Below are positions 1 through 26,300 of a stretch of DNA of 64,000 nt, one piece after another. The notes below the pieces were generated by a model. It saw only the letters and a program-made list of their open reading frames with translations. It was not told the origin of the DNA and ran no database searches. Source of the DNA: Eledone cirrhosa (lineage: Eukaryota); assembly GCA_964016885.1 (NCBI GenBank), contig OZ024741.1:409820001-409884000 (forward strand), written 5' to 3'. Each line of letters begins with the position of its first letter. Position 1 is the first letter of the stretch. The position numbers and the translations under genes are program-made.

Positions 1-1280
1 TATCTGGTTTACAATAGGTACACTGTATCCCTGTGTATATCAAGTTTACTATAGGTACACTGCATCCCTGTGTATATCTGGTTTATAATAAGTAAACTGT
101 CTCCCTGGGTATATCTGGTTTACATTAGGTACACTGTATCCCAGTGTATATCAGGTTTACAATAGGTACACTGTATCCCTGCTGTATATCTGGTTTACAA
201 TAGGTACTCTGTATCTCAGTGTATATCTGGTTTACAATAGGTACACTGTATCCCTGTGTATATCTGGTTTACAATAAGTACACTGTATCCCTGTGTATAT
301 CTGGTTTACAATAGGTACACTGTATCCCTGGGTATATCGGGTTTATAATAGGTACACTGTATCACTGTGTATATCTGGTTTACAATAGGTACACTGTATC
401 CCAGTGTGTATCTGGTTTACAATAGGTACACTGTATACCTGTGTATATCAGGTTTACAATAGGTACACTGTATCTCAGTGTATATCTGGTTTACAATAGG
501 TACACTGTATCCCAGTGTATATCTGGTTTACGATAGGTACACTGTATCCCTGTGTATATCAGGTTTACAATAGGTACACTGTATCCCAGTATATATCAGG
601 TTTACAATAGGTACACTGTATCCCAGTGTATATCAGGTTTACAATAGGTACACAGTATCTCTGTATATCTGGTTTACAATAGGTACACTGTCTCCCTGTG
701 TATATCTGGTTTACAATAGGTACACTGTATCCCTGTGTATCTGGTTTACAATAGGTACACTGTATCCCTGGGTATATCTGGTTTACAATAGGTACACTGT
801 ATCCCAGTGTATATCTGGTTTACAATAGGTACACCGTATCCCTGTGTATGTCAGGTTTACAATAGGTCCACTGTATCCCTGTGTATCTGGTTTACAATAG
901 GTACACTGTATCCCTGTGTATATCTGGTTTACAATAGGTACACTGTATCCCTGGGTATATCAGGTTTACAATAGGTACACTGAATCCCTGTGTATATCTG
1001 GTTTACAATAGGTACACTGTATCCCTGGGTATATCTGGTTTACGATAGGTATACTGTATCCCTGTGTATATTTGGTTTACAATAGGTACACTGTATCCCA
1101 GTGTATATCAGGTTTACAATAGGTACACTGCATCCCTGTGTATATCTGGTTTATAATAAGTACACTGTCTCCCTAGGTATACCTGGTTTACATTAGGTAC
1201 ACTGTATCCCAGTGTATATCAGGTTTACAATAGGTACACTGTATCCCTGTGTATCTGGTTTACAATAGGTACACTGTATC
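1..1280. repeat. 37-bp satellite tandem array, left of the LINE insertion (continues beyond window start)
   Basis: Head-to-tail copies of TATATCTGGTTTACAATAGGTACACTGTATCCCTGTG with period 37 (TATC at 1 and 38), with 35- and 38-bp length variants. Confidence 0.98.
1273..1280 (+). repeat. Target-site duplication, left copy (ACTGTATC)
   Basis: The same 8-mer flanks the other end of the element at 3356-3363. Uninterrupted paralogous monomers (5858-5865, 9353-9360, 14353-14360) carry it once. Confidence 0.85.
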
Positions 1281-1299
1281 ATCATCATCATCATCATCA
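1278..1299 (-). repeat. (GAT)n / (ATC)7 3' tail of the LINE
   Basis: ATC x7 at 1278-1298 on the + strand; the first ATC is shared with the target site. Short tandem-repeat tails are characteristic of RTE, CR1 and L2 LINEs. Confidence 0.92.
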
Positions 1300-1307
1300 C
1301 CGTTTTA

Positions 1308-1340
1308 CGTCCGTTCTTCCACGCTAGCATGGGTTAGACG
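1308..1340 (-). other. Putative 3'-terminal RNA stem-loop of the LINE (RT recognition element)
   Basis: The sense RNA reads CGUCU-AAC-CCAUG-CUAG-CGUGG-AAGAAC-GGACG. This forms two 5-bp stems, each with one G-U wobble, ending about 8 nt before the (GAU)n tail. Confidence 0.65.
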
Positions 1341-1448
1341 GGTTGTCCTGTTGTGGGCAGTGTCTGGTCGGCTGACCATGCCTTGCTCATACAGGAACTG
1401 ATCTGGCTTGATTTCTACAGCTGGATGCCCTTCCTAACACCAACCTCA

Positions 1449-1543
1449 TTTACAGTGAGTGCTGGGTGCTTTTTCGTGGCGCCTACACGTCCACTTTACA
1501 GTGTGGGCTGGGTGCTATTTTGCCGTGGCACCTCCACGACCAC
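1449..1543. repeat. Diverged ~46-49 bp tandem duplication within the LINE 3'UTR
   Basis: TTTACAGTGAGTGCTGGGTGCTTTTTCGTGGCGCCTACACGTCCAC (1449-1494) aligns with TTTACAGTGTGGGCTGGGTGCTATTTTGCCGTGGCACCTCCACGACCAC (1495-1543). A G13 run follows at 1552-1564. Confidence 0.8.
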
Positions 1544-1581
1544 CTTGCGGTGGGGGGGGGGGGGCATATTGTTTATATGCT

Positions 1582-3354
1582 TCAGCATGTACCCATGGGA
1601 GGTCGGGTACCCTGTATTACTGTGTGACGCCAGAAGTCACGGTCGTGTGTCATTGACTTTGAGAGGTGTAGTTGGGTAAGGTCGGCTTTTATCACCTCAT
1701 CCCAAGTCATCTTGGGTCTCCCCACTCCGCGGTTCCCATCAACTTCTAGTGCTCTGCACCTTTTTATGCAGCTGTCATCCTTCATACGCATCACATGTCC
1801 ATACCAGCGTAACCGCCTCTCCTGCACGCAGCATTTGATTCCTCTTATGCTCAGTCTCTCTCTCAATTCATTTATGCTTTGTCGTTCACGTATATTACTG
1901 TTACACATCCATCGGAGCATGCAGGCTTCGTTTCTCTCTAATCTACGTAAGTCTTCCACCTTCAGCGCCCAGGTCTCACTACCATGCAACATCGCTGTTC
2001 GGATACACGCATCATACAGTCTGCCTTTCATTCTGAGGGAGAAGCCTTTTGCAGCTAGCAGTGGTAGTAGTTCCCTAAACTTCTTCCATCCCGTTCTTAC
2101 CCTAGTTATTGTACTTTCTGAGCACCCATCTCCGTTGCTAATTCGGTCACCTAGGTAGCAGAAGCTGTCTACTGTTTCTACAGGGCCCTCCCAGAGATTG
2201 GTGGTACTTGTTTCCTGTGGCTGTTTGCTTGCTGTTTCAGCACAGCTGCTGCATGTGAATCCTACATTCTTAATTAAGCTTCCTGAGATCCCGCTACATC
2301 TCTTGTGTACCCATTGTTTGCATTTGGGGCAAAGAATGGAGTTCCTACCTACACCTTTCCTACATACTGAGCAAGGCCATTTCCCTGAGGGGATCTGGGT
2401 TCTGTTTTCTCGTCTACTTATAAGGACCTTAGTCTTTGTCATGTTGACTTTGAGGCCCTTTCTCTCTAGTCCCTGCTTCCAGGTTTGGAATTTATTCTCT
2501 AGTTCTACCATAGATTCAGCTATGAGTGCGAGGTCATCAGCATACAGGAGTTCCCATGGGCATCCGGTCTTAAACTCCTCCGTTATTGCCTGCAGGACTA
2601 TGATGAACAGGAGAGGGCTAAGAACAGAGCCCTGGTGGACCCCAACCTGTACGCTAAATTCCTCGCTATACTCATTGCCAATCCTAACTTTGCTGACTGC
2701 TCCCCTATACATGGCTTGTACCGCTTTCACAAGCCATTCATCTACTCCTAGTTTTCTAAGAGCCCACCAGATTACTGCACGTGGAACTCTGTCAAAGGCT
2801 TTCTCAAGGTCGACAAATGCCAAGTAGAGTGGCTTACTTTTAGCTAGGTACTTTTCCTGTAATTGCCTCACAAGGAAGAGCGCATCAGTGGTGCCTTTCC
2901 CTGGTACAAACCCAAATTGCATCTCGTCTATATTCACCCGGTCCCTAATCAGCTGTGCTATAACTCTTTCTGTTACTTTCATGACCTGGTCCATCAACTT
3001 TATACCTCTATAGTTTCCTCTATCTAGTGCATCGCCTTTACCTTTGTAGCAGTTGACAATGATGCTACTGCACCAATCTTTTGGTATGGCCCCCTCTAGT
3101 ATTACCTGGTTAACGATACGTGTGGTTATAGTGTGACCTACAGACCCAGATGCCTTCAGCATCTCGGCAGCTATACCCGATGGACCGGTTGCCTTCCCTA
3201 TCTTCATATCTCTGATTGCCTTACTTACTACGCTGCCGCTGACTTGTACTGCTGGTCCCTCTATAGGGTCTACGTGGGGTAGGGTCTCTTCTTCCCATGC
3301 ATTCTCCTCATTTAGTAATCTATCATAATGACTCTTCCATGCATCTTTCTTCTC
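1582..3354 (-). CDS. RTE-type reverse transcriptase (ORF2), N-terminally truncated, with an internal PHD finger; the ORF track calls 1582-3207 from an internal Met
   Basis: RT motifs in order: GKATGPSGI, YRGIKL, QFGF..GKGTTDA, FVDLEKAFDRV, GVHQGSVLSPLLF, YADD (2533-2544), GLKVN..KTKV, FCYLG. My manual translation upstream of 3207 stays open to the junction (EKKDAWKSHYDRLLNEENAWEEETLPHVDPIEGPAVQVSGSVVSKAIRD-MK), resembling the RTE EN-RT linker. Stop TGA at 1582-1584. Confidence 0.93.
   Translation of the reverse strand, partial: EKKDAWKSHYDRLLNEENAWEEETLPHVDPIEGPAVQVSGSVVSKAIRDMKIGKATGPSGIAAEMLKASGSVGHTITTRIVNQVILEGAIPKDWCSSIIVNCYKGKGDALDRGNYRGIKLMDQVMKVTERVIAQLIRDRVNIDEMQFGFVPGKGTTDALFLVRQLQEKYLAKSKPLYLAFVDLEKAFDRVPRAVIWWALRKLGVDEWLVKAVQAMYRGAVSKVRIGNEYSEEFSVQVGVHQGSVLSPLLFIIVLQAITEEFKTGCPWELLYADDLALIAESMVELENKFQTWKQGLERKGLKVNMTKTKVLISRRENRTQIPSGKWPCSVCRKGVGRNSILCPKCKQWVHKRCSGISGSLIKNVGFTCSSCAETASKQPQETSTTNLWEGPVETVDSFCYLGDRISNGDGCSESTITRVRTGWKKFRELLPLLAAKGFSLRMKGRLYDACIRTAMLHGSETWALKVEDLRRLERNEACMLRWMCNSNIRERQSINELRERLSIRGIKCCVQERRLRWYGHVMRMKDDSCIKRCRALEVDGNRGVGRPKMTWDEVIKADLTQLHLSKSMTHDRDFWRHTVIQGTRPPMGTC
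2242..2373 (-). other. PHD-type (C4-H-C3) zinc finger inserted in the RT domain
   Basis: CSVC-x10-CPKC-KQWV-H-KR-C-x14-CSSC, i.e. C-x2-C-x10-C-x2-C-x4-H-x2-C-x14-C-x2-C. It includes the W-x-H motif and an aromatic residue (F) two positions before the last Cys pair. Confidence 0.8.
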
Positions 3355-3355
3355 A

Positions 3356-3363
3356 ACTGTATC
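3356..3363 (+). repeat. Target-site duplication, right copy (ACTGTATC)
   Basis: ...TTCTCA|ACTGTATC|TCTGGGTATATCTGG, after which the satellite resumes in register with the left flank. Confidence 0.85.
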
Positions 3364-4358
3364 TCTGGGTATATCTGGTTTACAATAGGTACACTGTATC
3401 CCTGGGTATATCAGGTTTACAATAGGTACACTGTATCCCTGTGTATATCTGGTTTACAATAGGTACACTGTATCCATGTGTATATCTGGTTTACAATAGG
3501 TACACTGTATCCCTGTATATCAGGTTTACTATAGGTATACTGTATCCCTGTGTATATCTGGTTTACAATAGGTACACTGTATCCCTGTGTGTATCTTGTT
3601 TACAATAGGTACACTGTATCCCTGGGTATATCGGGTTTATAATAGGTACACTGTATCCCTGTGTATCTGGTTTACAATAGGTACACTGTATCCCTGGGTA
3701 TATCTGGTTTACAATAGGTACACTGTATCCCTGGGTATATCAGGTTTACAATAGGTACACTGTATCCCTGTGTATATCTGGTTTACAATAGGTACACTGT
3801 ATCCATGGGTATATCTGGTTTACAATAGGTACACTGTATCCCTGTATATCAGGTTTACTATAGGTACACTGTATCCCTGTGTATATCTGGTTTACAATAG
3901 GTACACTGTATCCCAGTGTATATCTGGTTTACAATAGGTACACTGTATCCCTGGGTATATCGGGTTTATAATAGGTACACTGTATCACTGTGTATATCTG
4001 GTTTACAATAGGTACACTGTATCCCAGTGTGTATCTGGTTTACAATAGGTACACTGTATACCTGTGTATATCAGGTTTACAATAGGTACACTGTATCCCT
4101 TTGGTATATCTGGTTTACAATAGGTACACTGTATCCCTGTGTATATCAGGTTTACAATAGGTACACTGTATCCATGGGTATATCTGGTTTACAATAGGTA
4201 CACTGTATCCCTGTGTATATCTGGTTTACAATAGGTACACTGTATCCCTGGGTATATCAGGTTTACAATAGGTACACTGAATCCTTGTGTATATCTGGTT
4301 TACAATAGGTACACTGTATCCTTGGGTATATCTGGTTTACAATAGGTACACTGTATCC

Positions 4359-7300
4359 CTGTGTATATCAAGTTTACTATAGGTACACTGCATCCCTGTG
4401 TATATCTGGTTTATAATAAGTACACTGTCTCCCTGGGTATATCTGGTTTACATTAGGTACACTGTATCCCAGTGTATATCAGGTTTACAATAGGTACACT
4501 GTATCCCTGCTGTATATCTGGTTTACAATAGGTACTCTGTATCTCAGTGTATATCTGGTTTACAATAGGTACACTGTATCCCTGTGTATATCTGGTTTAC
4601 AATAAGTACACTGTATCCCTGTGTATATCTGGTTTACAATAGGTACACTGTATCCCTGGGTATATCTGGTTTACAATATGTACACTGTATCCCTGGGTAT
4701 ATCTGGTTTACAATAGGTACACTGTATCCCTGTATATCAGGTTTACTATAGGTACACTGTATCCCTGTGTATATCTGGTTTACAATAGGTACACTGTATC
4801 CCTGTGTATATCTGGTTTACAATAGGTACACTGTATCCCTGGGTATATCGGGTTTATAATAGGTACACTGTATCACTGTGTATATCTGGTTTACAATAGG
4901 TACACTGTATCCCAGTGTGTATCTGGTTTACAATAGGTACACTGTATACCTGTGTATATCAGATTTACAATAGGTACACTGTATCTCAGTGTATATCTGG
5001 TTTACAATAGGTACACTGTATCCCAGTGTATATCTGGTTTACGATAGGTACACTGTATCCCTGTGTATATCAGGTTTACAATAGGTACACTGTATCCCAG
5101 TATATATCAGGTTTACAATAGGTACACTGTATCCCAGTGTATATCAAGTTTACAATAGGTACACAGTATCGCTGTATATCTGGTTTACAATAGGTACACT
5201 GTCTCCCTGTGTATATCTGGTTTACAATAGGTACACTGTATCCCTGTGTATCTGGTTTACAATAGGTACACTGTATCCCTGGGTATATCTGGTTTACAAT
5301 AGGTACACTGTATCCCAGTGTATATCTGGTTTACAATAGGTACACCGTATCCCTGTGTATGTCAGGTTTACAATAGGTCCACTGTATCCCTGTGTATCTG
5401 GTTTACAATAGGTACACTGTATCCCTGTGTATATCTGGTTTACAATAGGTACACTGTATCCATGGGTATATCTGGTTTACAATAGGTACACTGTATCCCA
5501 GTGTGTTTCAGGTTTACAATAGGTACACTGTATCCCTGGGTATATCAGGTTTACAATAGGTACACTGAATCCCTGTGTATATCTGGTTTACAATAGGTAC
5601 ACTGTATCCCTGGGTATATCTGGTTTACGATAGGTACACTGTATCCCTGTGTATATTTGGTTTACAATAGGTACACTGTATCCCAGTGTATATCAGGTTT
5701 ACAATAGGTACACTGCATCCCTGTGTATATCTGGTTTATAATAAGTACACTGTCTCCCTAGGTATACCTGGTTTACATTAGGTACACTGTATCCCAGTGT
5801 ATATCAGGTTTACAATAGGTACACTGTATCCCTGTGTATCTGGTTTACAATAGGTACACTGTATCCCTGGGTATATCTGGTTTACAATAGGTACACTGTA
5901 TCCCTGGGTATATCAGGTTTACAATAGGTACACTGTATCCCTGTGTATATCTGGTTTACAATAGGTACACTGTATCCATGTGTATATCTGGTTTACAATA
6001 GGTACACTGTATCCCTGTATATCAGGTTTACTATAGGTATACTGTATCCCTGTGTTTATCTGGTTTACAATAGGTACACTGTATCCCTGTGTATATCTTG
6101 TTTACAATAGGTACACTGTATCCCTGGGTATATTCGGGTTTATAATAGGTACACTGTATCCCTGTGTATCTGGTTTACAATAGGTACACTGTATCCCTGG
6201 GTATATCTGGTTTACAATAGGTACACTGTATCCCTGGGTATATCAGGTTTACAATAGGTACACTGTATCCCTGTGTATATCTGGTTTACAATAGGTACAC
6301 TGTATCCATGGGTATATCTGGTTTACAATAGGTACACTGTATCCCTGTATATCAGGTTTACTATAGGTACACTGTATCCCTGTGTATATCTGGTTTACAA
6401 TAGGTACACTGTATCCCAGTGTATATCTGGTTTACAATAGGTACACTGTATCCCTGGGTATATCGGGTTTATAATAGGTACACTGTATCACTGTGTATAT
6501 CTGGTTTACAATAGGTACACTGTATCCCAGTGTGTATCTGGTTTACAATAGGTACACTGTATACCTGTGTATATCAGGTTTACAATAGGTACACTGTATC
6601 TCAGTGTATGTCTGGTCTACAATAGGTACACTGTATCCCAGTGTATATCTGGTTTACAATAGGTACACTGTATCCCTGTGTATATCAGGTTTACTATAGG
6701 TACACTGTATCCCTGTGTATATCTGGTTTTCAATAGGTACACTGTATCCTTGTGTTATATCTGGTTTACAATAGGTACACTGTATCCCTGTGTATATCTG
6801 GTTTACAATAAGTACACTGTATCTCTGGGTATATCTGGTTTACAATAGGTACACTGTATCCCTGTGTATATCAAGTTTACAATAGGTACACTGTATCCCT
6901 GTGTATATCAAGTTTACAATAGGTACACTGTATCCCTGTGTATATCTGGTTTACAATAGGTACACTGTATCCCTGTATATCAGGTTTACAATAGGTACAC
7001 TGTATCCCTGTGTATCTGGTTTACAATAGGTACACTGTATCCCTGGGTATATCAGGTTTACAATAGGTACACTGTATTCCAGTATATATCTGGTTTACAC
7101 TAGGTACACTGTATACCTGGGTATATCTGGTTTACAATAGGTACACTGAATCCCTGTATATCTGGTTTACAATAGGTACACTGTATCCCAGTGTATATCT
7201 GATTTACAATAGGTACACTGTATCCCTGTGTATATCTAGTTTACAATAGGTACACTGTATCCCTGTGTATATCTGGTTTACAATAGGTACACTGTATCCC

Positions 7301-10300
7301 TGTGTATATCTAGTTTACAATAGGTACACTGTACCACTGTGTATATCTGGTTTACAATAGGTACACTGAATCCCTGTATATCTGGTTTACAATAGGTACA
7401 CTGTATCCCTGTGTATATCAGGTTTACAATAGGTACACTGTATCCCTGTGTACATCTGGTTTACAATAGGTACACTGTATCCCAGTGAGTATCTGGTTTA
7501 CAATAGGTACACTGTATACCTGTGTATATCAGGTTTACTATAGGTACACTGTATCCCTGTGTATATCTGGTTTTCAATAGGTACACTGTATCCTTGTGTT
7601 ATATCTGGTTTACAATAGGTACACTGTATCCCTGTGTATATCTGGTTTACAATAAGTACACTGTATCCCTGGGTATATCTGGTTTACAATAGGTACACTG
7701 TATCCCTGTGCATATCAGGTTTACAATAGCTACCCTGTATCCCAGTATATATCTGGTTTACAATAGGTACACTGTATCCCAGTGTGTATCAGGTTTACAA
7801 TAGGTACACTGTATCACTGTATATATCTGGTTTTCAATAGGTACACTGTATCTCTGTGTATATCAAGTTTACTATAGGTACACTGCATCCCTGTGTATAT
7901 CTGGTTTATAATAAGTACACTGTCTCCCTGGGTATATCTGGTTTACATTAGGTACACTGTATCCCAGTGTATATCAGGTTTACAATAGGTACACTGTATC
8001 CCTGCTGTATATCTGGTTTACAATAGGTACTCTGTATCTCAGTGTATATCTGGTTTACAATAGGTACACTGTATCCCTGTGTATATCTGGTTTACAATAA
8101 GTACACTGTATCCCTGTGTATATCTGGTTTACAATAGGTACACTGTATCCCTGGGTATATCTGGTTTACAATATGTACACTGTATCCCTGGGTATATCTG
8201 GTTTACAATAGGTACACTGTATCCCTGTATATCAGGTTTACTATAGGTACACTGTATCCCTGTGTATATCTGGTTTACAATAGGTACACTGTATCCCTGT
8301 GTATATCTGGTTTACAATAGGTACACTGTATCCCTGGGTATATCGGGTTTATAATAGGTACACTGTATCACTGTGTATATCTGGTTTACAATAGGTACAC
8401 TGTATCCCAGTGTGTATCTGGTTTACAATAGGTACACTGTATACCTGTGTATATCAGATTTACAATAGGTACACTGTATCTCAGTGTATATCTGGTTTAC
8501 AATAGGTACACTGTATCCCAGTGTATATCTGGTTTACGATAGGTACACTGTATCCCTGTGTATATCAGGTTTACAATAGGTACACTGTATCCCAGTATAT
8601 ATCAGGTTTACAATAGGTACACTGTATCCCAGTGTATATCAAGTTTACAATAGGTACACAGTATCGCTGTATATCTGGTTTACAATAGGTACACTGTCTC
8701 CCTGTGTATATCTGGTTTACAATAGGTACACTGTATCCCTGTGTATCTGGTTTACAATAGGTACACTGTATCCCTGGGTATATCTGGTTTACAATAGGTA
8801 CACTGTATCCCAGTGTATATCTGGTTTACAATAGGTACACCGTATCCCTGTGTATGTCAGGTTTACAATAGGTCCACTGTATCCCTGTGTATCTGGTTTA
8901 CAATAGGTACACTGTATCCCTGTGTATATCTGGTTTACAATAGGTACACTGTATCCATGGGTATATCTGGTTTACAATAGGTACACTGTATCCCAGTGTG
9001 TTTCAGGTTTACAATAGGTACACTGTATCCCTGGGTATATCAGGTTTACAATAGGTACACTGAATCCCTGTGTATATCTGGTTTACAATAGGTACACTGT
9101 ATCCCTGGGTATATCTGGTTTACGATAGGTACACTGTATCCCTGTGTATATTTGGTTTACAATAGGTACACTGTATCCCAGTGTATATCAGGTTTACAAT
9201 AGGTACACTGCATCCCTGTGTATATCTGGTTTATAATAAGTACACTGTCTCCCTAGGTATACCTGGTTTACATTAGGTACACTGTATCCCAGTGTATATC
9301 AGGTTTACAATAGGTACACTGTATCCCTGTGTATCTGGTTTACAATAGGTACACTGTATCCCTGGGTATATCTGGTTTACAATAGGTACACTGTATCCCT
9401 GGGTATATCAGGTTTACAATAGGTACACTGTATCCCTGTGTATATCTGGTTTACAATAGGTACACTGTATCCATGTGTATATCTGGTTTACAATAGGTAC
9501 ACTGTATCCCTGTATATCAGGTTTACTATAGGTATACTGTATCCCTGTGTATATCTGGTTTACAATAGGTACACTGTATCCCTGTGTATATCTTGTTTAC
9601 AATAGGTACACTGTATCCCTGGGTATATTCGGGTTTATAATAGGTACACTGTATCCCTGTGTATCTGGTTTACAATAGGTACACTGTATCCCTGGGTATA
9701 TCTGGTTTACAATAGGTACACTGTATCCCTGGGTATATCAGGTTTACAATAGGTACACTGTATCCCTGTGTATATCTGGTTTACAATAGGTACACTGTAT
9801 CCATGGGTATATCTGGTTTACAATAGGTACACTGTATCCCTGTATATCAGGTTTACTATAGGTACACTGTATCCCTGTGTATATCTGGTTTACAATAGGT
9901 ACACTGTATCCCAGTGTATATCTGGTTTACAATAGGTACACTGTATCCCTGGGTATATCGGGTTTATAATAGGTACACTGTATCACTGTGTATATCTGGT
10001 TTACAATAGGTACACTGTATCCCAGTGTGTATCTGGTTTACAATAGGTACACTGTATACCTGTGTATATCAGGTTTACAATAGGTACACTGTATCTCAGT
10101 GTATGTCTGGTCTACAATAGGTACACTGTATCCCAGTGTATATCTGGTTTACAATAGGTACACTGTATCCCTGTGTATATCAGGTTTACTATAGGTACAC
10201 TGTATCCCTGTGTATATCTGGTTTTCAATAGGTACACTGTATCCTTGTGTTATATCTGGTTTACAATAGGTACACTGTATCCCTGTGTATATCTGGTTTA

Positions 10301-11324
10301 CAATAAGTACACTGTATCTCTGGGTATATCTGGTTTACAATAGGTACACTGTATCCCTGTGTATATCAAGTTTACAATAGGTACACTGTATCCCTGTGTA
10401 TATCAAGTTTACAATAGGTACACTGTATCCCTGTGTATATCTGGTTTACAATAGGTACACTGTATCCCTGTATATCAGGTTTACAATAGGTACACTGTAT
10501 CCCTGGGTATATCAGGTTTACAATAGGTACACTGTATTCCAGTATATATCTGGTTTACACTAGGTACACTGTATCCCTGGGTATATCTGGTTTACAATAG
10601 GTACACTGAATCCCTGTATATCTGGTTTACAATAGGTACACTGTATCCCAGTGTATATCTGATTTACAATAGGTACACTGTATCCCTGTGTATATCTAGT
10701 TTACAATAGGTACACTGTATCCCTGTGTATATCTGGTTTACAATAGGTACACTGTATCCCTGTGTATATCTAGTTTACAATAGGTACACTGTACCACTGT
10801 GTATATCTGGTTTACAATAGGTACACTGAATCCCTGTATATCTGGTTTACAATAGGTACACTGTATCCCTGTGTATATCAGGTTTACAATAGGTACACTG
10901 TATCCCTGTGTACATCTGGTTTACAATAGGTACACTGTATCCCAGTGAGTATCTGGTTTACAATAGGTACACTGTATACCTGTGTATATCAGGTTTACTA
11001 TAGGTACACTGTATCCCTGTGTATATCTGGTTTTCAATAGGTACACTGTATCCTTGTGTTATATCTGGTTTACAATAGGTACACTGTATCCCTGTGTATA
11101 TCTGGTTTACAATAAGTACACTGTATCCCTGGGTATATCTGGTTTACAATAGGTACACTGTATCCCTGTGCATATCAGGTTTACAATAGCTACCCTGTAT
11201 CCCAGTATATATCTGGTTTACAATAGGTACACTGTATCCCAGTGTGTATCAGGTTTACAATAGGTACACTGTATCACTGTATATATCTGGTTTTCAATAG
11301 GTACACTGTATCTCTGTGTATATC
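4359..11324. repeat. ~3.5-kb tandem duplication inside the array (about 4359-7853 / 7854-11324)
   Basis: Rare variants recur at offset 3495: AGATTT 4961/8456, GTGTGTTTCA 5501/8996, TATTCGGG 6131/9626. The offset becomes 3460 after loss of a 35-bp monomer (GTACCACTG 7331/10791). Confidence 0.85.
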
Positions 11325-14300
11325 TAGTTTACAATAGGTACACTGAATCCCTGTCTATATCTGGTTTACAATAGGTACACTGTATCCCTGGGTATATCTG
11401 ATTTACAATAGTTACACTGTATCCCCGTGTATATCAAGTTTACAATAGGTACACTGTATCCCTGTGTATATCTGGTTTACAATAGGTACACTGTATCCCT
11501 GTATATCAGGTTTACAATAGGTTCACTGTATCCCTGTGTATCTGGTTTACAATAGGTACACTGTATCCCTGGGTATATCAGGTTTACAATAGGTACACAG
11601 TATCCTGATGTATATCTGGTTTACAATAGGTACACTGTATTCCAGTATATATCTGGTTTACACTAGGTACACTGTATCCCTGGGTATATCTGGTTTACAA
11701 TAGGTACACTGAATCCCTGTATATCTGGTTTACAATAGGTACACTGTATCCCAGTGTATATCTGATTTACAATAGGTACACTGTATCCCTGTGTATATCT
11801 AGTTTACAATAGGTACACTGTATCCCTGTGTATATCTGGTTTACAATAGGTACACTGTATCCCTGTGTATATCTAGTTTACAATAGGTACACTGTATCCC
11901 TGTGTATATCTGGTTTACAATAGGTACACTGAATCCCTGTATATCTGGTTTACAATAGGTACACTGTATCCCTGTGTATATCAGGTTTACAATAGGTACA
12001 CTGTATCCCTGTGTACATCTGGTTTACAATAGGTACACTGTATCCCAGTGAGTATCTGGTTTACAATAGGTACACTGTATACCTGTGTATTTCAGGTTTA
12101 CAATAGGTACACTGTATCTCAGTGTATATCAGGTTTGCAATAGGTACACAGTATCCCAGTGTATATCAGGTTTACAATAGGTACACAGTATCGCTGTATA
12201 TCTGGTTTACAATAGGTACACTGTCTCCCTGTGTATATCTGGTTTACAATAGGTACACTGTATCCCTGGGTATATCGGGTTTATAATAGGTACACTGTAT
12301 CACTGTGTATATCTGGTTTACAATAGGTACACTGTATCCCAGTGTGTATCTGGTTTACAATAGGTACACTGTATCCCTGTGTATATCAGGTTTACAATAA
12401 GTACACTGTATCCCTGTGTATCTGGTTTACAATAGGTACACTGTATCCCTGTGTATATCAGGTTTACTATAGGTACACTGTATCCCTGTGTATATCTGGT
12501 TTACAATAGGTACACTGTATCCCTGGGTATATCAGGTTTACAATAGGTACACTGAATCCCTGTGTATATCTGGTTTACAATAGGTACACTGTATCCCTGG
12601 GTATATCTGGTTTACGATAGGTACACTGTATCCCTGTGTATATTTGGTTTACAATAGGTACACTGTATCCCAGTGTATATCAGGTTTACAATAGGTACAC
12701 TGCATCCCTGTGTATATCTGGTTTATAATAAGTACACTGTCTCCCTAGGTATACCTGGTTTACATTAGGTACCCTGTATCCCAGTGTATATCAGGTTTAC
12801 AATAGGTACACTGTATCCCTGTGTATCTGGTTTACAATAGGTACACTGTATCCCTGTGTATATCAAGTTTACTATAGGTACACTGCATCCCTGTGTATAT
12901 CTTGTTTATAATAAGTACACTGTCTCCCTGGGTATATCTGGTTTACATTAGGTACACTGTATCCCAGTGTATATCAGGTTTACAATAGGTACACTGTATC
13001 CCTGCTGTATATCTGGTTTACAATAGGTACTCTGTATCTCAGTGTATATCTGGTTTACAATAGGTACACTGTATCCCTGTGTATATCTGGTTTACAATAA
13101 GTACACTGTATCCCTGTGTATATCTGGTTTACAATAGGTACACTGTATCCCTGGGTATATCTGGTTTACAATATGTACACTGTATCCCTGGGTATATCTG
13201 GTTTACAATAGGTACACTGTATCCCTGTATATCAGGTTTACTATAGGTACACTGTATCCCTGTGTATATCTGGTTTACAATAGGTACACTGTATCCCTGT
13301 GTATATCTGGTTTACAATAGGTACACTGTATCCCTGGGTATATCGGGTTTATAATAGGTACACTGTATCACTGTGTATATCTGGTTTACAATAGGTACAC
13401 TGTATCCCAGTGTGTATCTGGTTTACAATAGGTACACTGTATACCTGTGTATATCAGGTTTACAATAGGTACACTGTATCTCAGTGTATATCTGGTTTAC
13501 AATAGGTACACTGTATCCCAGTGTATATCTGGTTTACGATAGGTACACTGTATCCCTGTGTATATCAGGTTTACAATAGGTACACTGTATCCCAGTATAT
13601 ATCAGGTTTACAATAGGTACACTGTATCCCAGTGTATATCAAGTTTACAATAGGTACACAGTATCGCTGTATATCTGGTTTACAATAGGTACACTGTCTC
13701 CCTGTGTATATCTGGTTTACAATAGGTACACTGTATCCCTGTGTATCTGGTTTACAATAGGTACACTGTATCCCTGGGTATATCTGGTTTACAATAGGTA
13801 CACTGTATCCCAGTGTATATCTGGTTTACAATAGGTACACCGTATCCCTGTGTATGTCAGGTTTACAATAGGTCCACTGTATCCCTGTGTATCTGGTTTA
13901 CAATAGGTACACTGTATCCCTGTGTATATCTGGTTTACAATAGGTACACTGTATCCATGGGTATATCTGGTTTACAATAGGTACACTGTATCCCTGTGTA
14001 TATCTGGTTTACAATAGGTACACTGTATCCCTGGGTATATCAGGTTTACAATAGGTACACTGAATCCCTGTGTATATCTGGTTTACAATAGGTACACTGT
14101 ATCCCTGGGTATATCTGGTTTACGATAGGTACACTGTATCCCTGTGTATATTTGGTTTACAATAGGTACACTGTATCCCAGTGTATATCAGGTTTACAAT
14201 AGGTACACTGCATCCCTGTGTATATCTGGTTTATAATAAGTACACTGTCTCCCTAGGTATATCTGGTTTACATTAGGTACACTGTATCCCGGTGTATATC

Positions 14301-17300
14301 AGGTTTACAATAGGTACACTGTATCCCTGTGTATCTGGTTTACAATAGGTACACTGTATCCCTGGGTATATCTGGTTTACAATAGGTACACTGTATCCCT
14401 GGGTATATCAGGTTTACAATAGGTACACTGTATCCCTGTGTATATCTGGTTTACAATAGGTACACTGTATCCATGTGTATATCTGGTTTACAATAGGTAC
14501 ACTGTATCCCTGTATATCAGGTTTACTATAGGTATACTGTATCCCTGTGTATATCTGGTTTACAATAGGTACACTGTATCCCTGTGTATATCTTGTTTAC
14601 AATAGGTACACTGTATCCCTGGGTATATCGGGTTTATAATAGGTACACTGTATCCCTGTGTATCTGGTTTACAATAGGTACACTGTATCCCTGGGTATAT
14701 CTGGTTTACAATAGGTAGACTGTATCCCTGGGTATATCAGGTTTACGATACGTACACTGTATCCCTGTGTATATCTGGTTTACAATAGGTACACTGTATC
14801 CATGGGTATATCTGGTTTACAATAGGTACACTGTATCCCTGTATATCAGGTTTACTATAGTTACACTGTATCCCTGTGTATATCTGGTTTACAATAGGTA
14901 CACTGTATCCCAGTGTATATCTGGTTTACAATAGGTACACTGTATCCCTGGGTATATCGGGTTTATAATAGGTACACTGTATCACTGTGTATATCTGGTT
15001 TACAATAGGTACACTGTATCCCAGTGTGTATCTGGTTTACAATAGGTACACTGTATACCTGTGTATATCAGGTTTACAATAGGTACACTGTATCTCAGTG
15101 TATGTCTGGTCTACAATAGGTACACTGTATCCCAGTGTATATCTGGTTTACAATAGGTACACTGTATCCCTGTGTATATCAGGTTTACTATAGGTACACT
15201 GTATCCCTGTGTATATCTGGTTTTCAATAGGTACACTGTATCCTTGTGTTATATCTGGTTTACAATAGGTACACTGTATCCCTGTGTATATCTGGTTTAC
15301 AATAAGTACACTGTATCCCTGGGTATATCTGGTTTACAATAGGTACACTGTATCCCTGTGCATATCAGGTTTACAATAGCTACCCTGTATCCCAGTATAT
15401 ATCTGGTTTACAATAGGTACACTGTATCCCAGTGTGTATCAGGTTTACAATAGGTACACTGTATCACTGTATATATCTGGTTTTCAATAGGTACACTGTA
15501 TTTCTTTTTTATATCTAGTTTACAATAGGTACACTGAATCCCTGTCTATATCTGGTTTACAATAGGTACACTGTATCCCTGTGTATATCTGGTTTTCAAT
15601 AGGTACACTGTATCCTTGTGTTATATCTGGTTTACAATAGGTACACTGTATCCCTGTGTATATCAAGTTTACAATAGGTACACTGTATCCCTGTGTATAT
15701 CAAGTTTACAATAGGTACACTGTATCCCTGTGTATATCTGGTTTACAATAGGTACACTGTATCCCTGTATATCAGGTATACAATAGGTACACTGTATCCC
15801 TGTGTATCTGGTTTACAATAGGTACACTGTATCCCTGGGTATATCAGGTTTACAATAGGTACACAGTATCCTGATGTATATCTAGTTTACAATAGGTACA
15901 CTGTATCCCTGTGTATATCTGGTTTTCAATAGGTACACTGTATCCCTGTGTATATCTAGTTTACAATAGGTACACTGTATCACTGTGTATATCTGGTTTA
16001 CAATAGGTACACTGAATCCCTGTATATCTGGTTTACAATAGGTACACTGTATCCCTGTGTATATCAGGTTTACAATAGGTACACTGTATCCCTGTGTACA
16101 TCTGGTTTGCAATAGGTACACTGTATCCCAGTGAGTATCTGGTTTACAATAGGTACACTGTATACCTGTGTATATCAGGTTTACTATAGGTACACTGTAT
16201 CCCTGTGTATATCTGGTTTTCAATAGGTACACTGTATCCTTGTGTTATATCTGGTTTACAATAGGTACACTGTATCCCTGTGTATATCTGGTTTACAATA
16301 AGTACACTGTATCCCTGGGTATATCTGGTTTACAATAGGTACACTGTATCCCTGTGCATATCAGGTTTACAATAGCTACCCTGTATCCCAGTATATATCT
16401 GGTTTACAATAGGTACACTGTATCCCAGTGTGTATCAGGTTTACAATAGGTACACTGTATCACAGTATATATCTGGTTTTCAATAGGTACACTGTATCTC
16501 TGTGTATATCTAGTTTACAATAGGTACACTGAATCCCTGTCTATATCTGGTTTACAATAGGTACACTGTATCCCTGGGTATATCTGGTTTACAATAGTTA
16601 CACTGTATCCCTGTGTATATCAAGTTTACAATAGGTACACTGTATCCCTGTGTATATCAAGTTTACAATAGGTACACTGTATCCCTGTGTATATCTGGTT
16701 TACAATAGGTACACTGTATCCCTGTATATCAGGTTTACAATAGGTACACTGTATCCCTGTGTATCTGGTTTACAATAGGTACACTGTATCCCTGGGTATA
16801 TCAGGTTTACAATAGGTACACAGTATCCTGATGTATATCTGGTTTACAATAGGTACACTGTATTCCAGTATATATCTGGTTTACACTAGGTACACTGTAT
16901 CCCTGGGTATATCTGGTTTACAATAGGTACACTGAATCCCTGTATATCTGGTTTACAATAGGTACACTGTATCCCAGTGTATATCTGATTTACAATAGGT
17001 ACACTGTATCCCTGTGTATATCTAGTTTACAATAGGTACACTGTATCCCTGTGTATATCTGGTTTACAATAGGTACACTGTATCCCTGTGTATATCTAGT
17101 TTACAATAGGTACACTGTATCCCTGTGTATATCTGGTTTACAATAGGTACACTGAATCCCTGTATATCTGGTTTACAATAGGTACACTGTATCCCTGTGT
17201 ATATCAGGTTTACAATAGGTACACTGTATCCCTGTGTACATCTGGTTTACAATAGGTACACTGTATCCCAGTGAGTATCTGGTTTACAATAGGTACACTG

Positions 17301-20300
17301 TATACCTGTGTATTTCAGGTTTACAATAGGTACACTGTATCTCAGTGTATATCAGGTTTACAATAGGTACACAGTATCCCAGTGTATATCAGGTTTACAA
17401 TAGGTACACAGTATCGCTGTATATCTGGTTTACAATAGGTACACTGTCTCCCTGTGTATATCTGGTTTACAATAGGTACACTGTATCCCTGGGTATATCG
17501 GGTTTATAATAGGTACACTGTATCACTGTGTATATCTGGTTTACAATAGGTACACTGTATCCCAGTGTGTATCTGGTTTACAATAGGTACACTGTATCCC
17601 TGTGTATATCAGGTTTACAATAGGTACACTGTATCCCTGTGTATCTGGTTTACAATAGGTACACTGTATCCCTGTGTATATCAGGTTTACTATAGGTACA
17701 CTGTATCCCTGTGTATATCTGGTTTACAATAGGTACACTGTATCCCTGGGTATATCAGGTTTACAACAGGTACACTGAATCCCTGTGTATATCTGGTTTA
17801 CAATAGGTACACTGTATCCCTGGGTATATCTGGTTTACGATAGGTACACTGTATCCCTGTGTATATTTGGTTTACAATAGGTACACTGTATCCCAGTGTA
17901 TATCAGGTTTACAATAGGTACACTGCATCCCTGTGTATATCTGGTTTATAATAAGTACACTGTCTCCCTAGGTATACCTGGTTTACATTAGGTACCCTGT
18001 ATCCCAGTGTATATCAGGTTTACAATAGGTACATTGTATCCCTGTGTATCTGGTTTACAATAGGTACACTGTATCCCTGGGTATATCTGGTTTACAATAG
18101 GTACACTGTATCCCTGGGTATATCAGGTTTACAATAGGTACACTGTATCCCTGTGTATATCTGGTTTACAATAGGTACACTGTATCCATGGGTATATCTG
18201 GTTTACAATAGGTACACTGTATCCCTGTATATCAGGTTTACTATAGGTATACTGTATCCCTGTGTATATCTGGTTTACAATAGGTACACTGTATCCCTGT
18301 GTATATCTTGTTTACAATAGGTACACTGTATCCCTGGGTATATCGGGTTTATAATAGGTACACTGTATCCCTGTGTATCTGGTTTACAATAGGTACACTG
18401 TATCCCTGGGTATATCTGGTTTACAATAGGTAAACTGTATCCCGGTATATCAGGTTTACTATAGGTACACTGTATCCCTGTGTATATCTGGTTTACAATA
18501 GGTACACTGTATCCCAGTGTATATCTGGTTTACAATAGGTACACTGTATCCCTGGGTATATCGGGTTTATAATAGGTACACTGTATCACTGTGTATATCT
18601 GGTTTACAATAGGTACACTGTATCCCAGTGTGTATCTGGTTTACAATAGGTACACTGTATACCTGTGTATATCAGGTTTACAATAGGTACACTGTATCTC
18701 AGTGTATGTGTGGTCTACAATAGGTACACTGTATCCCAGTGTATATCTGGTTTACAATAGGTTCACTGTATCCCTGTGTATATCAGGTTTACTATAGGTA
18801 CACTGTATCCCTGTGTATATCTGGTTTTCAATAGGTACACTGTATCCTTGTGTTATATCTGGTTTACAATAGGTACACTGTATCCCTGTGTATATCTGGT
18901 TTACAATAAGTACACTGTATCCCTGGGTATATCTGGTTTACAATAGGTACACTGTATCCCTGTGCATATCAGGTTTACAATAGCTACCCTGTATCCCAGT
19001 ATATATCTGGTTTACAATAGGTACACTGTATCCCAGTGTGTATCAGGTTTACGATAGGTACACTGTATCACTGTATATATCTGGTTTTCAATAGGTACAC
19101 TGTATCTCTGTGTATATCTAGTTTACAATAGGTACACTGAATCCCTGTCTATATCTGGTTTACAATAGGTACACTGTATCCCTGGGTATATCTGGTTTAC
19201 AATAGTTACACTGTATCCCTGTGTATATCAAGTTTACAATAGGTACACTGTATCCCTGTGTATATCAAGTTTACAATAGGTACACTGTATCCCTGTGTAT
19301 ATTTGGTTTACAATAGGTACACTGTATCCCTGTATATCAGGTTTACAATAGGTACACTGTATCCCTGTGTATCTGGTTTACAATAGGTACACTGTATCCC
19401 TGGGTATATCAGGTTTACAATAGGTACACTGTATCCTGATGTATATCTGGTTTACAATAGGTACACTGTATTCCAGTATATATCTGGTTTACACTAGGTA
19501 CACTGTATCCCTGGGTATATCTGGTTTACAATAGGTACACTGAATCCCTGTATATCTGGTTTACAATAGGTACACTGTATCCCAGTGTATATCTGATTTA
19601 CAATAGGTACACTGTATCCCTGTGTATATCTGGTTTACAATAGGTACACTGTATCCCTGTGTATATCTAGTTTACAATAGGTACACTGTATCCCTGTGTA
19701 TATCTGGTTTACAATAGGTACACTGTATCCCTGTGTATATCTAGTTTACAATAGGTACACTGTATCCCTGTGTATATCTGGTTTACAATAGGTACACTGA
19801 ATCCCTGTATATCTGGTTTACAATAGGTACACTGTATCCCTGTGTATATCAGGTTTACAATAGGTACACTGTATCCCTGTGTACATCTGGTTTACAATAG
19901 GTACACTGTATCCCAGTGAGTATCTGGTTTACAATAGGTACACTGTATACCTGTGTATATCAGGTTTACAATAGGTACACTGTATCTCAGTGTATATCAG
20001 GTTTACAATTGGTACACAGTATCCCTGTGTATATCAGGTTTACAATAGGTACACAGTATCGCTGTATATCTGGTTTACAATAGGTACACTGTCTCCCTGT
20101 GTATATCTGGTTTACAATAGGTACACTGTATCCCTGGGTATATCGGGTTTATAATAGGTACACTGTATCACTGTGTATATCTGGTTTACAATAGGTACAC
20201 TGTATCCCAGTGTGTATCTGGTTTACAATAGGTACACTGTATCCCTGTGTATATCAGGTTTACAATAGGTACACTGTATCCCTGTGTATCTGGTTTACAA

Positions 20301-23300
20301 TAGGTACACTGTATCCCAGTGTATATCTGGTTTACAATAGGTACACTGTATGCCTGTGTATATCAGGTTTACTATAGGTACACTGTATCCCTGTGTATAT
20401 CTGGTTTTCAATAGGTACACTGTATCCTTGTGTTATATCTGGTTTACAATAGGTACACTGTATCCCTGTGTATATCTGGTTTACAATAAGTACACTGTAT
20501 CCCTGGGTATATCTGGTTTACAATAGGTACACTGTATCCCTGTGCATATCAGGTTTACAATAGCTACCCTGTATCCCAGTATATATCTGGTTTACAATAG
20601 GTACACTGTATCCCAGTGTGTATCAGGTTTACAATAGGTACACTGTATCACTGTATATATCTGGTTTTCAATAGGTACACTGTATCTCTGTGTATATCTA
20701 GTTTACAATAGGTACACTGAATCCCTGGGTATATCTGGTTTACAATAGGTAAACTGTATCCCTGTGTATATCAAGTTTACAATAGGTATACTGTATCCCT
20801 GTGTATATCAAGTTTACAATAGGTACACTGTATCCCTGTGTATATCTGGTTTACAATAGGTACACTGTATCCCTGTATATCAGGTTTACAATAGGTACAC
20901 TGTATCCCTGTGTATCTGGTTTACAATAGGTACACTGTATCCCTGGGTATATCTGGTTTACAACAGGTACACTGTATCCCTGGGTATATCAGGTTTACAA
21001 TAGGTACACTGTATCCTGATGTATATCTGGTTTACAATAGGTACACTGTATTCCGGTATATATCTGGTTTACACTAGGTACACTGTATCCCTGGGTATAT
21101 CTGGTTTACAATAGGTACACTGAATCCCTGTATATCTGGTTTACAATAGGTACACTGTATCCCCGTGTATATCTGGTTTACAATAGGTACACTGTATCCC
21201 TGTGTATATCTGGTTTACAATAGGTACACTGTATCCCTGTGTATATCTAGTTTACAATAGGTACACTGTATCCCTGGGTATATCAGGTTTACAATAGGTA
21301 CACTGTATCCCTGTGTATATCTGGTTTACAATAGGTACACTGTATCCATGGGTATATCTGGTTTACAATAGGTACACTGTATCCCTGTATATCAGGTTTA
21401 CTATAGGTATACTGTATCCCTGTGTATATCTGGTTTACAATAGGTACACTGTATCCCTGTGTATATCTTGTTTACAATAGGTACACTGTATCCCTGGGTA
21501 TATCGGGTTTATAATAGGTACACTGTATCCCTGTGTATCTGGTTTACAATAGGTACACTGTATCCCTGGGTATATCTGGTTTACAATAGGTACACTGTAT
21601 CCCTGGGTATATCAGGTTTACAATAGGTACACTGTATCCCTGTGTATATCTGGTTTACAATAGGTACACTCTATCCATGGGTATATCTGGTTTACAATAG
21701 GTACACTGTATCTCAGTGTATGTCTGGTCTACGATAGGTACACTGTATCCCAGTGTGTATCAGGTTTACTATAGGTACACTGTATCCCTGTGTATATCTG
21801 GTTTTCAATAGGTACACTGTATCCTTGTGTTATATCTGGTTTACAATAGGTACACTGTATCCTTGTGTTATATCTGGTTTACAATAGGTACACTGTATCC
21901 CTGTGTATATCTGGTTTACAATAAGTACACTGTATCCCTGGGTATATCTGGTTTACAATAGGTACACTGTATCCCTGTGCATATCAGGTTTACAATAGCT
22001 ACCCTGTATCCCAGTATATATCTGGTTTACAATAGGTACACTGTATCCCAGTGTGTATCAGGTTTACGATAGGTACACTGTATCACTGTATATATCTGGT
22101 TTTCAATAGGTACACTGTATCTCTGTGTATATCTAGTTTACAATAGGTACACTGAATCCCTGTCTATATCTGGTTTACAATAGGAACACTGTATCCCTGG
22201 GTATATCTGGTTTACAATAGTTACACTGTATCCCTGTGTATATCAAGTTTACAATAGGTACACTGTATCCCTGTGTATATCAAGTTTACAATAGGTACAC
22301 TGTATCCCTGTGTATATCTGGTTTACAATAGGTACACTGTATCCCTGTATATCAGGTTTACAATAGGTACACTGTATCCCTGTGTATCTGGTTTACAATA
22401 GGTACACTGTATCCCTGGGTATATCAGGTTTACAATAGGTACACTGTATCCTGATGTATATCTGGTTTACAATAGGTACACTGAATCCCTGTATATCTGG
22501 TTTACAATAGGTACACTGTATCCCAGTGTATATCTGATTTACAATAGGTACACTGTATCCCTGTGTATATCTGGTTTACAATAGGTACACTGTATCCCTG
22601 TGTATATCTAGTTTACAATAGGTACACTGTATCCCTGTGTATATCTGGTTTACAATAGGTACACTGTATCCCTGTGTATATCTAGTTTACAATAGGTACA
22701 CTGTATCCCTGTGTATATCTGGTTTACAATAGGTACACTGAATCCCTGTATATCTGGTTTACAATAGGTACACTGTATCCCTGTGTATATCAGGTTTACA
22801 ATAGGTACACTGTATCCCTGTGTACATCTGGTTTACAATAGGTACACTGTATCCCAGTGAGTATCTGGTTTACAATAGGTACACTGTATACCTGTGTATA
22901 TCAGGTTTACAATAGGTACACTGTATCTCAGTGTATATCAGGTTTACAATTGGTACACAGTATCCCTGTGTATATCAGGTTTACAATAGGTACACAGTAT
23001 CGCTGTATATCTGGTTTACAATAGGTACACTGTCTCCCTGTGTATATCTGGTTTACAATAGGTACACTGTATCCCTGGGTATATCGGGTTTATAATAGGT
23101 ACACTGTATCACTGTGTATATCTGGTTTACAATAGGTACACTGTATCCCAGTGTGTATCTGGTTTACAATAGGTACACTGTATCCCTGTGTATATCAGGT
23201 TTACAATAGGTACACTGTATCCCTGTGTATCTGGTTTACAATAGGTACACTGTATCCCAGTGTATATCTGGTTTACAATAGGTACACTGTATCCCTGTGT

Positions 23301-26300
23301 ATATCAGGTTTACTATAGGTACACTGTATCCCTGTGTATATCTGGTTTTCAATAGGTACACTGTATCCTTGTGTTATATCTGGTTTACAATAGGTACACT
23401 GTATCCCTGTGTATATCTGGTTTACAATAAGTACACTGTATCCCTGGGTATATCTGGTTTACAATAGGTACACTGTATCCCTGTGCATATCAGGTTTACA
23501 ATAGCTACCCTGTATCCCAGTATATATCTGGTTTACAATAGGTACACTGTATGCCAGTGTGTATCAGGTTTACAATAGGTACACTCTATCACTGTATATA
23601 TCTGGTTTTCAATAGGTACACTGTATCTCTGTGTATATCTAGTTTACAATAGGTACACTGAATCCCTGTCTATATCTGGTTTACAATAGGTACACTGTAT
23701 CCCTGGGTATATCTGGTTTACAATAGGTACACTGTATCCCTGTGTATATCAAGTTTACAATAGGTATACTGTATCCCTGTGTATATCAAGTTTACAATAG
23801 GTACACTGTATCCCTGTGTATATCTGGTTTACAATAGGTACACTGTATCCCTGTATATCAGGTTTACAATAGGTACACTGTATCCCTGTGTATCTGGTTT
23901 ACAATAGGTACACTGTATCCCTGGGTATATCTGGTTTACAACAGGTACACTGTATCCCTGGGTATATCAGGTTTACAATAGCTACACTGTATCCTGATGT
24001 ATATCTGGTTTACAATAGGTACACTGTATTCCAGTATATATCTGGTTTACACTAGGTACACTGTATCCCTGGGTATATCTGGTTTACAATAGGTACACTG
24101 AATCCCTGTATATCTGGTTTACAATAGGTACACTGTATCCCAGTGTATATCTGGTTTACAATAGGTACACTGTATCCCTGTGTATATCTGGTTTACAATA
24201 GGTACACTGTATCCCTGTGTATATCTAGTTTACAATAGGTACACTGTATCCCTGGGTATATCAGGTTTACAATAGGTACACTGTATCCCTGTGTATATCT
24301 GGTTTACAATAGGTACACTGTATCCATGGGTATATCTGGTTTACAATAGGTACACTGTATCCCTGTATATCAGGTTTATTATAGGTATACTGTATCCCTG
24401 TGTATATCTGGTTTACAATAGGTACACTGTATCCCAGTGTATATCTGGTTTACAATAGGTACACTGTATCCCTGTGTATATCAGGTTTACTATAGGTACA
24501 CTGTATCCCTGTGTATATCTGGTTTTCAATAGGTACACTGTATCCTTGTGTTATATCTGGTTTACAATAGGTACACTGTATCCCTGTGTATATCTGGTTT
24601 ACAATAAGTACACTGTATCTCTGGGTATATCTGGTTTACAATAGGTACACTGTATCCCTGTGTATATCAAGTTTACAATAGGTACACTGTATCCCTGTGT
24701 ATATCAAGTTTACAATAGGTACACTGTATCCCTGTGTATATCTGGTTTACAATAGGTACACTGTATCCCTGTATATCAGGTTTACAATAGGTACACTGTA
24801 TCCCTGGGTATATCAGGTTTACAATAGGTACACTGTATTCCAGTATATATCTGGTTTACACTAGGTACACTGTATCCCTGGGTATATCTGGTTTACAATA
24901 GGTACACTGAATCCCTGTATATCTGGTTTACAATAGGTACACTGTATCCCAGTGTATATCTGATTTACAATAGGTACACTGTATCCCTGTGTATATCTAG
25001 TTTACAATAGGTACACTGTATCCCTGTGTATATCTGGTTTACAATAGGTACACTGTATCCCTGTGTATATCTAGTTTACAATAGGTACACTGTACCACTG
25101 TGTATATCTGGTTTACAATAGGTACACTGAATCCCTGTATATCTGGTTTACAATAGGTACACTGTATCCCTGTGTATATCAGGTTTACAATAGGTACACT
25201 GTATCCCTGTGTACATCTGGTTTACAATAGGTACACTGTATCCCAGTGAGTATCTGGTTTACAATAGGTACACTGTATACCTGTGTATATCAGGTTTACT
25301 ATAGGTACACTGTATCCCTGTGTATATCTGGTTTTCAATAGGTACACTGTATCCTTGTGTTATATCTGGTTTACAATAGGTACACTGTATCCCTGTGTAT
25401 ATCTGGTTTACAATAAGTACACTGTATCCCTGGGTATATCTGGTTTACAATAGGTACACTGTATCCCTGTGCATATCAGGTTTACAATAGCTACCCTGTA
25501 TCCCAGTATATATCTGGTTTACAATAGGTACACTGTATCCCAGTGTGTATCAGGTTTACAATAGGTACACTGTATCACTGTATATATCTGGTTTTCAATA
25601 GGTACACTGTATCTCTGTGTATATCTAGTTTACAATAGGTACACTGAATCCCTGTCTATATCTGGTTTACAATAGGTACACTGTATCCCTGGGTATATCT
25701 GATTTACAATAGTTACACTGTATCCCCGTGTATATCAAGTTTACAATAGGTACACTGTATCCCTGTGTATATCTGGTTTACAATAGGTACACTGTATCCC
25801 TGTATATCAGGTTTACAATAGGTTCACTGTATCCCTGTGTATCTGGTTTACAATAGGTACACTGTATCCCTGGGTATATCAGGTTTACAATAGGTACACA
25901 GTATCCTGATGTATATCTGGTTTACAATAGGTACACTGTATTCCAGTATATATCTGGTTTACACTAGGTACACTGTATCCCTGGGTATATCTGGTTTACA
26001 ATAGGTACACTGAATCCCTGTATATCTGGTTTACAATAGGTACACTGTATCCCAGTGTATATCTGATTTACAATAGGTACACTGTATCCCTGTGTATATC
26101 TAGTTTACAATAGGTACACTGTATCCCTGTGTATATCTGGTTTACAATAGGTACACTGTATCCCTGTGTATATCTAGTTTACAATAGGTACACTGTATCC
26201 CTGTGTATATCTGGTTTACAATAGGTACACTGAATCCCTGTATATCTGGTTTACAATAGGTACACTGTATCCCTGTGTATATCAGGTTTACAATAGGTAC

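Follow-up and report, generated by a model that had tools for sequence, protein, structure and literature searches.

The locus described here raises the question of whether a PHD finger lies inside the reverse transcriptase (RT) of an RTE-type LINE and, if so, what it might contribute there. The window, by which we mean the whole 64-kb stretch of DNA that was analyzed, is filled by a satellite with a 37-bp unit (Tandem Repeats Finder) that is broken by a single 2,075-bp insert on the minus strand, at 1281-3355. This insert is a 5′-truncated copy of an RTE-type LINE (Table 1). Its ORF remnant comprises about 590 codons of the RT part and, apart from two substitutions, equals intact copies elsewhere in the genome over aa 450-1039. 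The first three bases of the duplication at the 3′ end of the element, read on the element strand, extend the tail repeat. The 46-bp tandem duplication in the 3′ UTR has one more unit in some other copies, e.g. L039.

Table 1. Positions of features in the 64-kb window
Feature	Position	Strand	Remark
37-bp host satellite	3356..64000, also 1-1280		~1650 copies
8-bp target-site duplication, copy at element 3′ end	1273..1280		
(GAT)n 3′ tail	1281..1299	-	
3′ UTR, 282 bp	1300..1581	-	contains 46-bp tandem duplication (1449-1543)
Remnant of the endonuclease-RT ORF (1039 aa when intact), covering aa 450-1039	1582..3354	-	endonuclease lost by 5′ truncation
RT motif 7 strand (VETVDSFCYLG)	2149..2181	-	
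C-terminal linker of insert	2200..2241	-	variable, low confidence
PHD finger core, C777-C820 of intact ORF (C4HC3)	2242..2373	-	
W-x-H-K-R-C	2296..2313	-	near-invariant Trp at Pygo1 W366 position, then basic patch
Conserved G-V-G-x-N-S-I loop and strand	2335..2355	-	V, S and I at Pygo1 V350, A356 and I357 positions
Conserved SGK[WYF]P lead-in	2374..2388	-	aromatic residue aligned with Pygo1 Y341
N-terminal linker of insert	2389..2415	-	begins at the aligned R2 6a loop position
RT motif 6 end (KGLKVNMTKTKVL)	2422..2460	-	aligns to R2Bm up to L666
RT catalytic YADD	2533..2544	-	
8-bp target-site duplication, copy at 5′ truncation point	3356..3363		

The initial annotation had described a 44-aa module of the form C-x2-C-x10-C-x2-C-x4-H-x2-C-x14-C-x2-C between the KTKV and FCYLG motifs, and this module is indeed present in frame. 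It matched the Pfam PHD profile (PF00628) with an E-value of 2.2e-8 and a score of 34.4 bits, against a curated cut-off of 24. The RING, C1 and zinc-ribbon models of Pfam all remained below their own cut-offs on the module, and a RING, C1 or FYVE identity was rejected, as these models were either below cut-off or absent from the list of matches. The linker between RT motifs 6 and 7 is as unusually long as had been supposed: from KT to FxYLG it spans 89 aa here versus 26 aa in both PHD-less RTs used for comparison, which come from one fish protein (P0089), and the insert adds 63 residues at this point. Its flanking sequences agree with those given in the initial annotation. Their description as flexible-looking fits the two linkers (pLDDT 71 and 56; column conservation 0.42 and 0.33) but not the SGK[WYF]P lead-in, which is conserved and belongs to the domain. 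An AlphaFold2 model of the intact protein, built from a 120-row alignment, had a mean pLDDT of 89.7, with 77-91 in the finger. Folded alone, the module reached 83-92 across its core at an overall pTM of 0.56, a model value which suggests that the finger would not be rigidly docked. When the isolated module was searched with Foldseek, the rows listed were PHD-containing chains (Pygo, BAZ2B, BPTF and TAF3), with an rmsd of 2.2 Å to Pygo1, BPTF and TAF3; the best E-value was 0.014 and none was at or below 0.001. The confident core and the PHD fold matches bear out the predicted cross-brace. A chance resemblance or artefact is excluded by the Pfam score, the fold and conservation in the family, and the module is thereby confirmed as a PHD finger of the canonical C4HC3 type that lies within the RT encoded by an RTE-type ORF.

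We provisionally call the element RTE-type, on the basis of its anatomy and C-terminal motifs. A longest-ORF scan of 20 full-length copies found in every one a single frame of about 1040 aa that encodes an AP endonuclease and an RT, with no ORF1. Pfam assigned EEP and RVT_1 to the ORF protein, whose model spans residues 6-1063 of L1 ORF2p with the L1-type C-terminal domain missing; no conserved CCHC motif was found in it downstream of the thumb. The window copy has the RTE hallmarks of a 282-bp 3′ UTR, a microsatellite tail, 5′ truncation and an 8-bp duplication, and target-site duplications were seen in 71 of 93 analysable copies. The element thus resembles the RTE clade (Bov-B, RTE-1 and plant RTEs) in its single endonuclease-RT ORF without a C-terminal cysteine-rich domain and in its short 3′ UTR, as well as in its microsatellite tail, its 5′ truncation and a nick between T and A with tail microhomology (signature in PMC6007223 and PMC13295347). 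It differs from the clade in the 63-aa PHD insert in its RT, in duplications of 4-8 bp, and in a strong preference for (AT)n with only a weak T excess at −10/−11.

Several further features of the copies were observed. Both background DNA and the surroundings of copies repeatedly contain short elements that are 83-95% identical to the 3′ UTR of the LINE and end in a comparable (GAT)n tail (in the 5′ flanks of L022, L026 and L031, and at L041, L057 and L060); they are likely to be SINE-like or non-autonomous partners. Upstream of the ORF, the 5′ UTR (L025, L027, L029 and L038) contains a variable count of tandem monomers, which resemble monomer-type LINE promoters, together with larger internal duplications. 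At the 5′ junctions of L096 and L115, the truncated element starts with a tandem repeat of its first 15-30 bases, which suggests that reverse transcription ended with slippage or re-priming. At L037, L163 and L189 element copies lie head-to-tail, one inserted beside or into another.

The LINE family is very young and abundant in its own genome (3.0 Gb). All 150 scored matches, drawn from 79,992 first-look candidates (a number distinct from the copy number), were 99-100% identical. The 117 young copies compared with the window copy had a median DNA identity of 99.5%, and all 117, chosen by best score, encode an identical PHD. Two older subfamilies, at ~75% and ~62% protein identity, also retain the finger; together with the young copies they rule out a one-off capture of the PHD by the window copy. 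A search with a PHD-less query, in which the top 30 of 150 own-genome matches were translated, revealed no separate PHD-less family among them, and at these 30 loci we saw only single decayed copies (L121, L122, L123, L126 and L136) with differing PHD deletions, none of them shared. Among homologues ranked by likeness to a PHD-bearing query, from which the share of all RTEs with a PHD is therefore not derivable, the finger was present in 119 of the 120 best long proteins (all but P0089) and in 119 of 120 from a second search. All eight zinc ligands were conserved in 120/120 aligned full-length proteins with P0089 left out, a conservation that is inflated because the query included the PHD. The strict spacing pattern held in 112 of 121 sequences, query included, and 8 further sequences had one or two extra residues. 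When representatives at 50% identity were taken, 63 of 150 covered both flanking motifs, and these comprised 51 intact patterns, 11 decayed fingers and one deletion. Carriers include Hydractinia symbiolongicarpus, Branchiostoma floridae and the catfish Neoarius graeffei; the PHD insert is a family trait, kept in relatives from cnidarian to fish. Public Pfam annotation already places RVT_1 plus PHD on many relatives. In a tree, 41 PHD-bearing RT cores stood apart from two PHD-less RTs with a support of 0.82, although, with both outgroups taken from one fish protein, this tree is too sparse to establish that the insert arose once. Full PHD-bearing RTE proteins were also encountered in bacterial genome bins (P0098 and P0460; Terriglobia and Thiodiazotropha), where they are probably host DNA carried over.

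The location of the finger may hint at what it does. Alignment of the RT with R2Bm extends to L760, which corresponds to R2Bm L666, and the PHD insert begins three residues on, at R763. In R2Bm, residues 672-677 form the 6a loop, which recognizes bases located upstream of the nick; nicking is blocked when the loop is deleted, and 6a was predicted to occur in R2 alone (PMC10499050). Three additional structures, from vertebrate R2, likewise show 6a entering or wedging into upstream target DNA (PMC12180492, PMC12222951). Judged by the sequence alignment on the N-terminal side, the insert appears to be equivalent in position to 6a, and since 6a meets target DNA, the finger would occupy a site that faces the target. 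Like 6a of R2Bm, R2Tg and R2Pm, the insert separates RT motifs 6 and 7 and does so at the corresponding place in the alignment. The two differ in that 6a is a short loop, which recognizes bases at a single rDNA site, whereas the insert is a whole folded zinc finger. Our preferred reading, to which we assign a probability of roughly 45%, is that the PHD finger, on its tether, clamps target DNA or a nucleosome upstream of the nick regardless of sequence, acting mainly through its basic surface. The position at the R2 6a site, the basic charge, the loss of acidic residues, the missing L1 C-terminal domain, a pTM compatible with a tether, and the restriction of PHD loss to decayed deletion copies among the top 30 own-genome matches all speak for such a clamp. 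Against it, the finger is of the canonical type and is conserved best along the histone groove (conservation of 0.73 in the pocket half, 773-805, and 0.46 in 806-820, with 0.76 in the RT core), while a 2018 review covers two DNA-binding PHD fingers, both of them atypical C3HC2H domains without histone-binding residues (PMC6222470). The solved structures nearest to our finger, in sequence as in fold, are those of H3K4-methyl readers, no upstream motif was found at −19 to −27 in a small sample of 26 non-microsatellite sites, and the PHD-less RTE relatives (P0089) transposed without a finger.

The foremost alternative is a Pygopus-type histone reader that binds H3K4me1/2/3 and biases insertion to open, active chromatin. 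By sequence, the closest solved structures are Pygo2/Pygo1 and PHF13, and some relatives score as Pfam PHD_Pygo. Five of the seven positions of the Pygo1 H3K4me pocket, as defined in PMC2726290, are retained: W797 (Pygo1 W366) in 119/120, an aromatic residue at 775 (Y341) in 116/120, V784 (V350) in 111/120, S/A788 (A356) in 118/120 and I/V789 (I357) in 116/120. The Trp is also found in 76 of 77 more distant relatives. The equivalents of Pygo D352 and E360 are not acidic, however; position 792 is T/S/V/G, the loop is shortened, and E360 is required for H3K4me3 binding in Pygo (PMC2726290). Compared with the Pygopus PHD, to which it is closest in solved sequence and fold and with which it shares the W, aromatic, V, A/S and I pocket positions, the finger has shorter loops, is net basic and lacks the long HD1-binding loop 2. 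Its composition has a median of 9 basic and 2 acidic residues, with a net charge of +2 to +11 (median +7) in 120/120 proteins and +1 to +11 in the 77 more distant relatives, and K800 and K/R801 occur in 99/120 and 109/120. A reader thus has to reconcile the loss of both acidic pocket residues and a charge of about +7 with a basic ligand, and the pocket conservation is itself inflated by the PHD-containing query. Among transposase cross-brace fingers, the basic PHD-like finger of piggyBac binds DNA and the acidic finger of Pgm binds H3 (PMC8086355). The evidence from the surface is therefore mixed: the intact cage, as predicted from the alignment, would argue for a methyl-lysine ligand, and the lost acids, basic charge and position for nucleic acid. 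Because the acids are absent, the finger is strongly basic and the site is that of 6a, DNA binding is at least as likely as histone reading, and we hold the histone-reader proposal to be rather doubtful.

We consider it improbable that the groove instead holds another ligand, such as the element RNA, a host protein or some basic stretch of the ORF protein itself. This single-ORF element has no ORF1 chaperone (20/20 copies), the small-residue loop G-V-G-x-N-S and the invariant Trp could hold a phosphate or a base, and the insert site adjoins the primer-grip strand; yet nothing points to a specific partner, and in R2 the loop found here is turned toward target DNA and not toward RNA.

Insertion sites were analyzed in 120 young copies, 117 of them from C1, taken as a non-random set from the best-scoring list; the 3′ end was readable in 117 and the flank unmasked in 116. 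Of these 116 flanks, 50 adjoin (AT)n, 9 satellite and 57 other DNA. Among 3000 background positions from twenty 10-kb blocks of C1, 151 (5%) adjoin (AT)n and 354 (12%) satellite, the latter a rough figure that comes from 3 of the 20 blocks; among positions after AT, (AT)n was found in 488/3000. The enrichment for (AT)n is ~9-fold, or 2.6-fold with this control for microhomology, and a first pass with 74 copies gave the same pattern. It is unlikely that the element created the (AT)n flanks after insertion, as (AT)n borders the element on either side in 32 of 39 such copies. All 9 copies in satellite (L028, L032, L038, L067 and L087-L091) lie, in both orientations, in one 18-bp array at C1 ~7.5-9.1 Mb that is rich in ATAT/ATGT and is a possible local hot spot. 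That the finger steers insertions to satellite heterochromatin in the manner of a chromodomain, as the initial annotation had proposed from a copy within a 64-kb satellite and as the nine clustered copies might suggest, is very improbable, given that 9/116 young copies adjoin satellite versus 354/3000 in the background and that the pocket resembles readers of H3K4 methylation, a mark of open chromatin.

At 26 other sites, the duplication was 4-8 bp in 24, began with AT in 16, was preceded by T in 15, and had T at −10 in 16 (overall T 38%). Of the 93 analysable copies, 22 showed no duplication, and matches of 4 bp could be fortuitous. A nick between T and A, an upstream T stretch and pairing of tail and target are published RTE features (PMC6007223, PMC13295347), so the (AT)n bias need not stem from the finger; likewise, as the 30 translated loci of 150 held no PHD-less control family, the preference is not assignable to the PHD.

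Under the clamp reading, we envisage that the endonuclease nicks between T and A within AT-rich DNA and that the (GAT)n RNA tail then anneals to the freed primer over 1-3 bases. Projecting from the palm at the R2 6a/upstream-duplex site, the finger would steady the complex on its target and so do the work that R2 assigns to its N-terminal zinc finger/Myb domains and L1 to its C-terminal cysteine-rich domain, all of which are missing here. In addition, the aromatic pocket that the finger has retained may weakly contact the methylated H3K4 tail of a neighbouring nucleosome. Real fold, conservation and kept cage residues make a role in target engagement plausible. The earlier idea of a reader domain that tethers target-primed reverse transcription (TPRT) to chromatin retains these three features in its favor and loses the targeting of satellite and heterochromatin.

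Kapitonov and Jurka reportedly noted PHD domains in ORF1 of CR1/L2 elements in 2003. The initial annotation had likewise placed PHD domains in CR1/L2-type ORF1, which agrees with PMC4120745. Those fingers are also LINE-encoded, but they lie in ORF1 or the N-terminus of ORF2, outside the RT, and the same source calls the structure of ORF2 highly constrained. The Chlamys Penelope-like elements do have a PHD finger inserted within a retroelement RT; they are, however, another element class, in algal hosts, and the insert lies either between RT2a and RT3 or in the endonuclease (PMC8557442). Accessory DNA- or chromatin-binding modules are also represented by the C-terminal cross-brace finger of piggyBac, the chromodomains of chromoviruses and CopiaMBD (PMC8086355, and PMC6673714, where chromatin-reading modules of LTR elements are discussed), but these are on transposases or integrases and not within an RT palm. 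The portions covered of a paper on the octopus element RTE-2_OV mention a C2H2 finger and no PHD, and those of PMC9115989, PMC3849965, PMC13708176 and PMC9004415 hold no description of a PHD in an RTE RT. We found none in the open full-text literature, a scope outside which lie Repbase, Dfam and subscription journals, which may note it. A PHD finger in the RT of RTE elements is thus real, conserved and apparently undescribed in the open literature covered.

How LINEs without a fixed target choose a site and hold on to it is poorly understood beyond L1 and R2. If the finger is a generic basic patch only, its interest is modest. A bolder picture, which we offer tentatively and judge to be on the unlikely side, is that an ancient, animal-wide LINE lineage carries an H3K4-methyl reader in its RT palm that grips both upstream DNA and a methylated tail and so couples TPRT to chromatin state. 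The site between motifs 6 and 7, called an R2-specific loop, accommodates an entire zinc-finger domain in an RTE-type lineage that is widespread. This family supplies a 50-residue domain amenable to tests, along with many intact, near-identical young copies. RTE proteins serve as RNA-delivered gene-insertion tools (PMC13708176), and a natural RT site that tolerates a folded targeting domain is therefore of practical interest.
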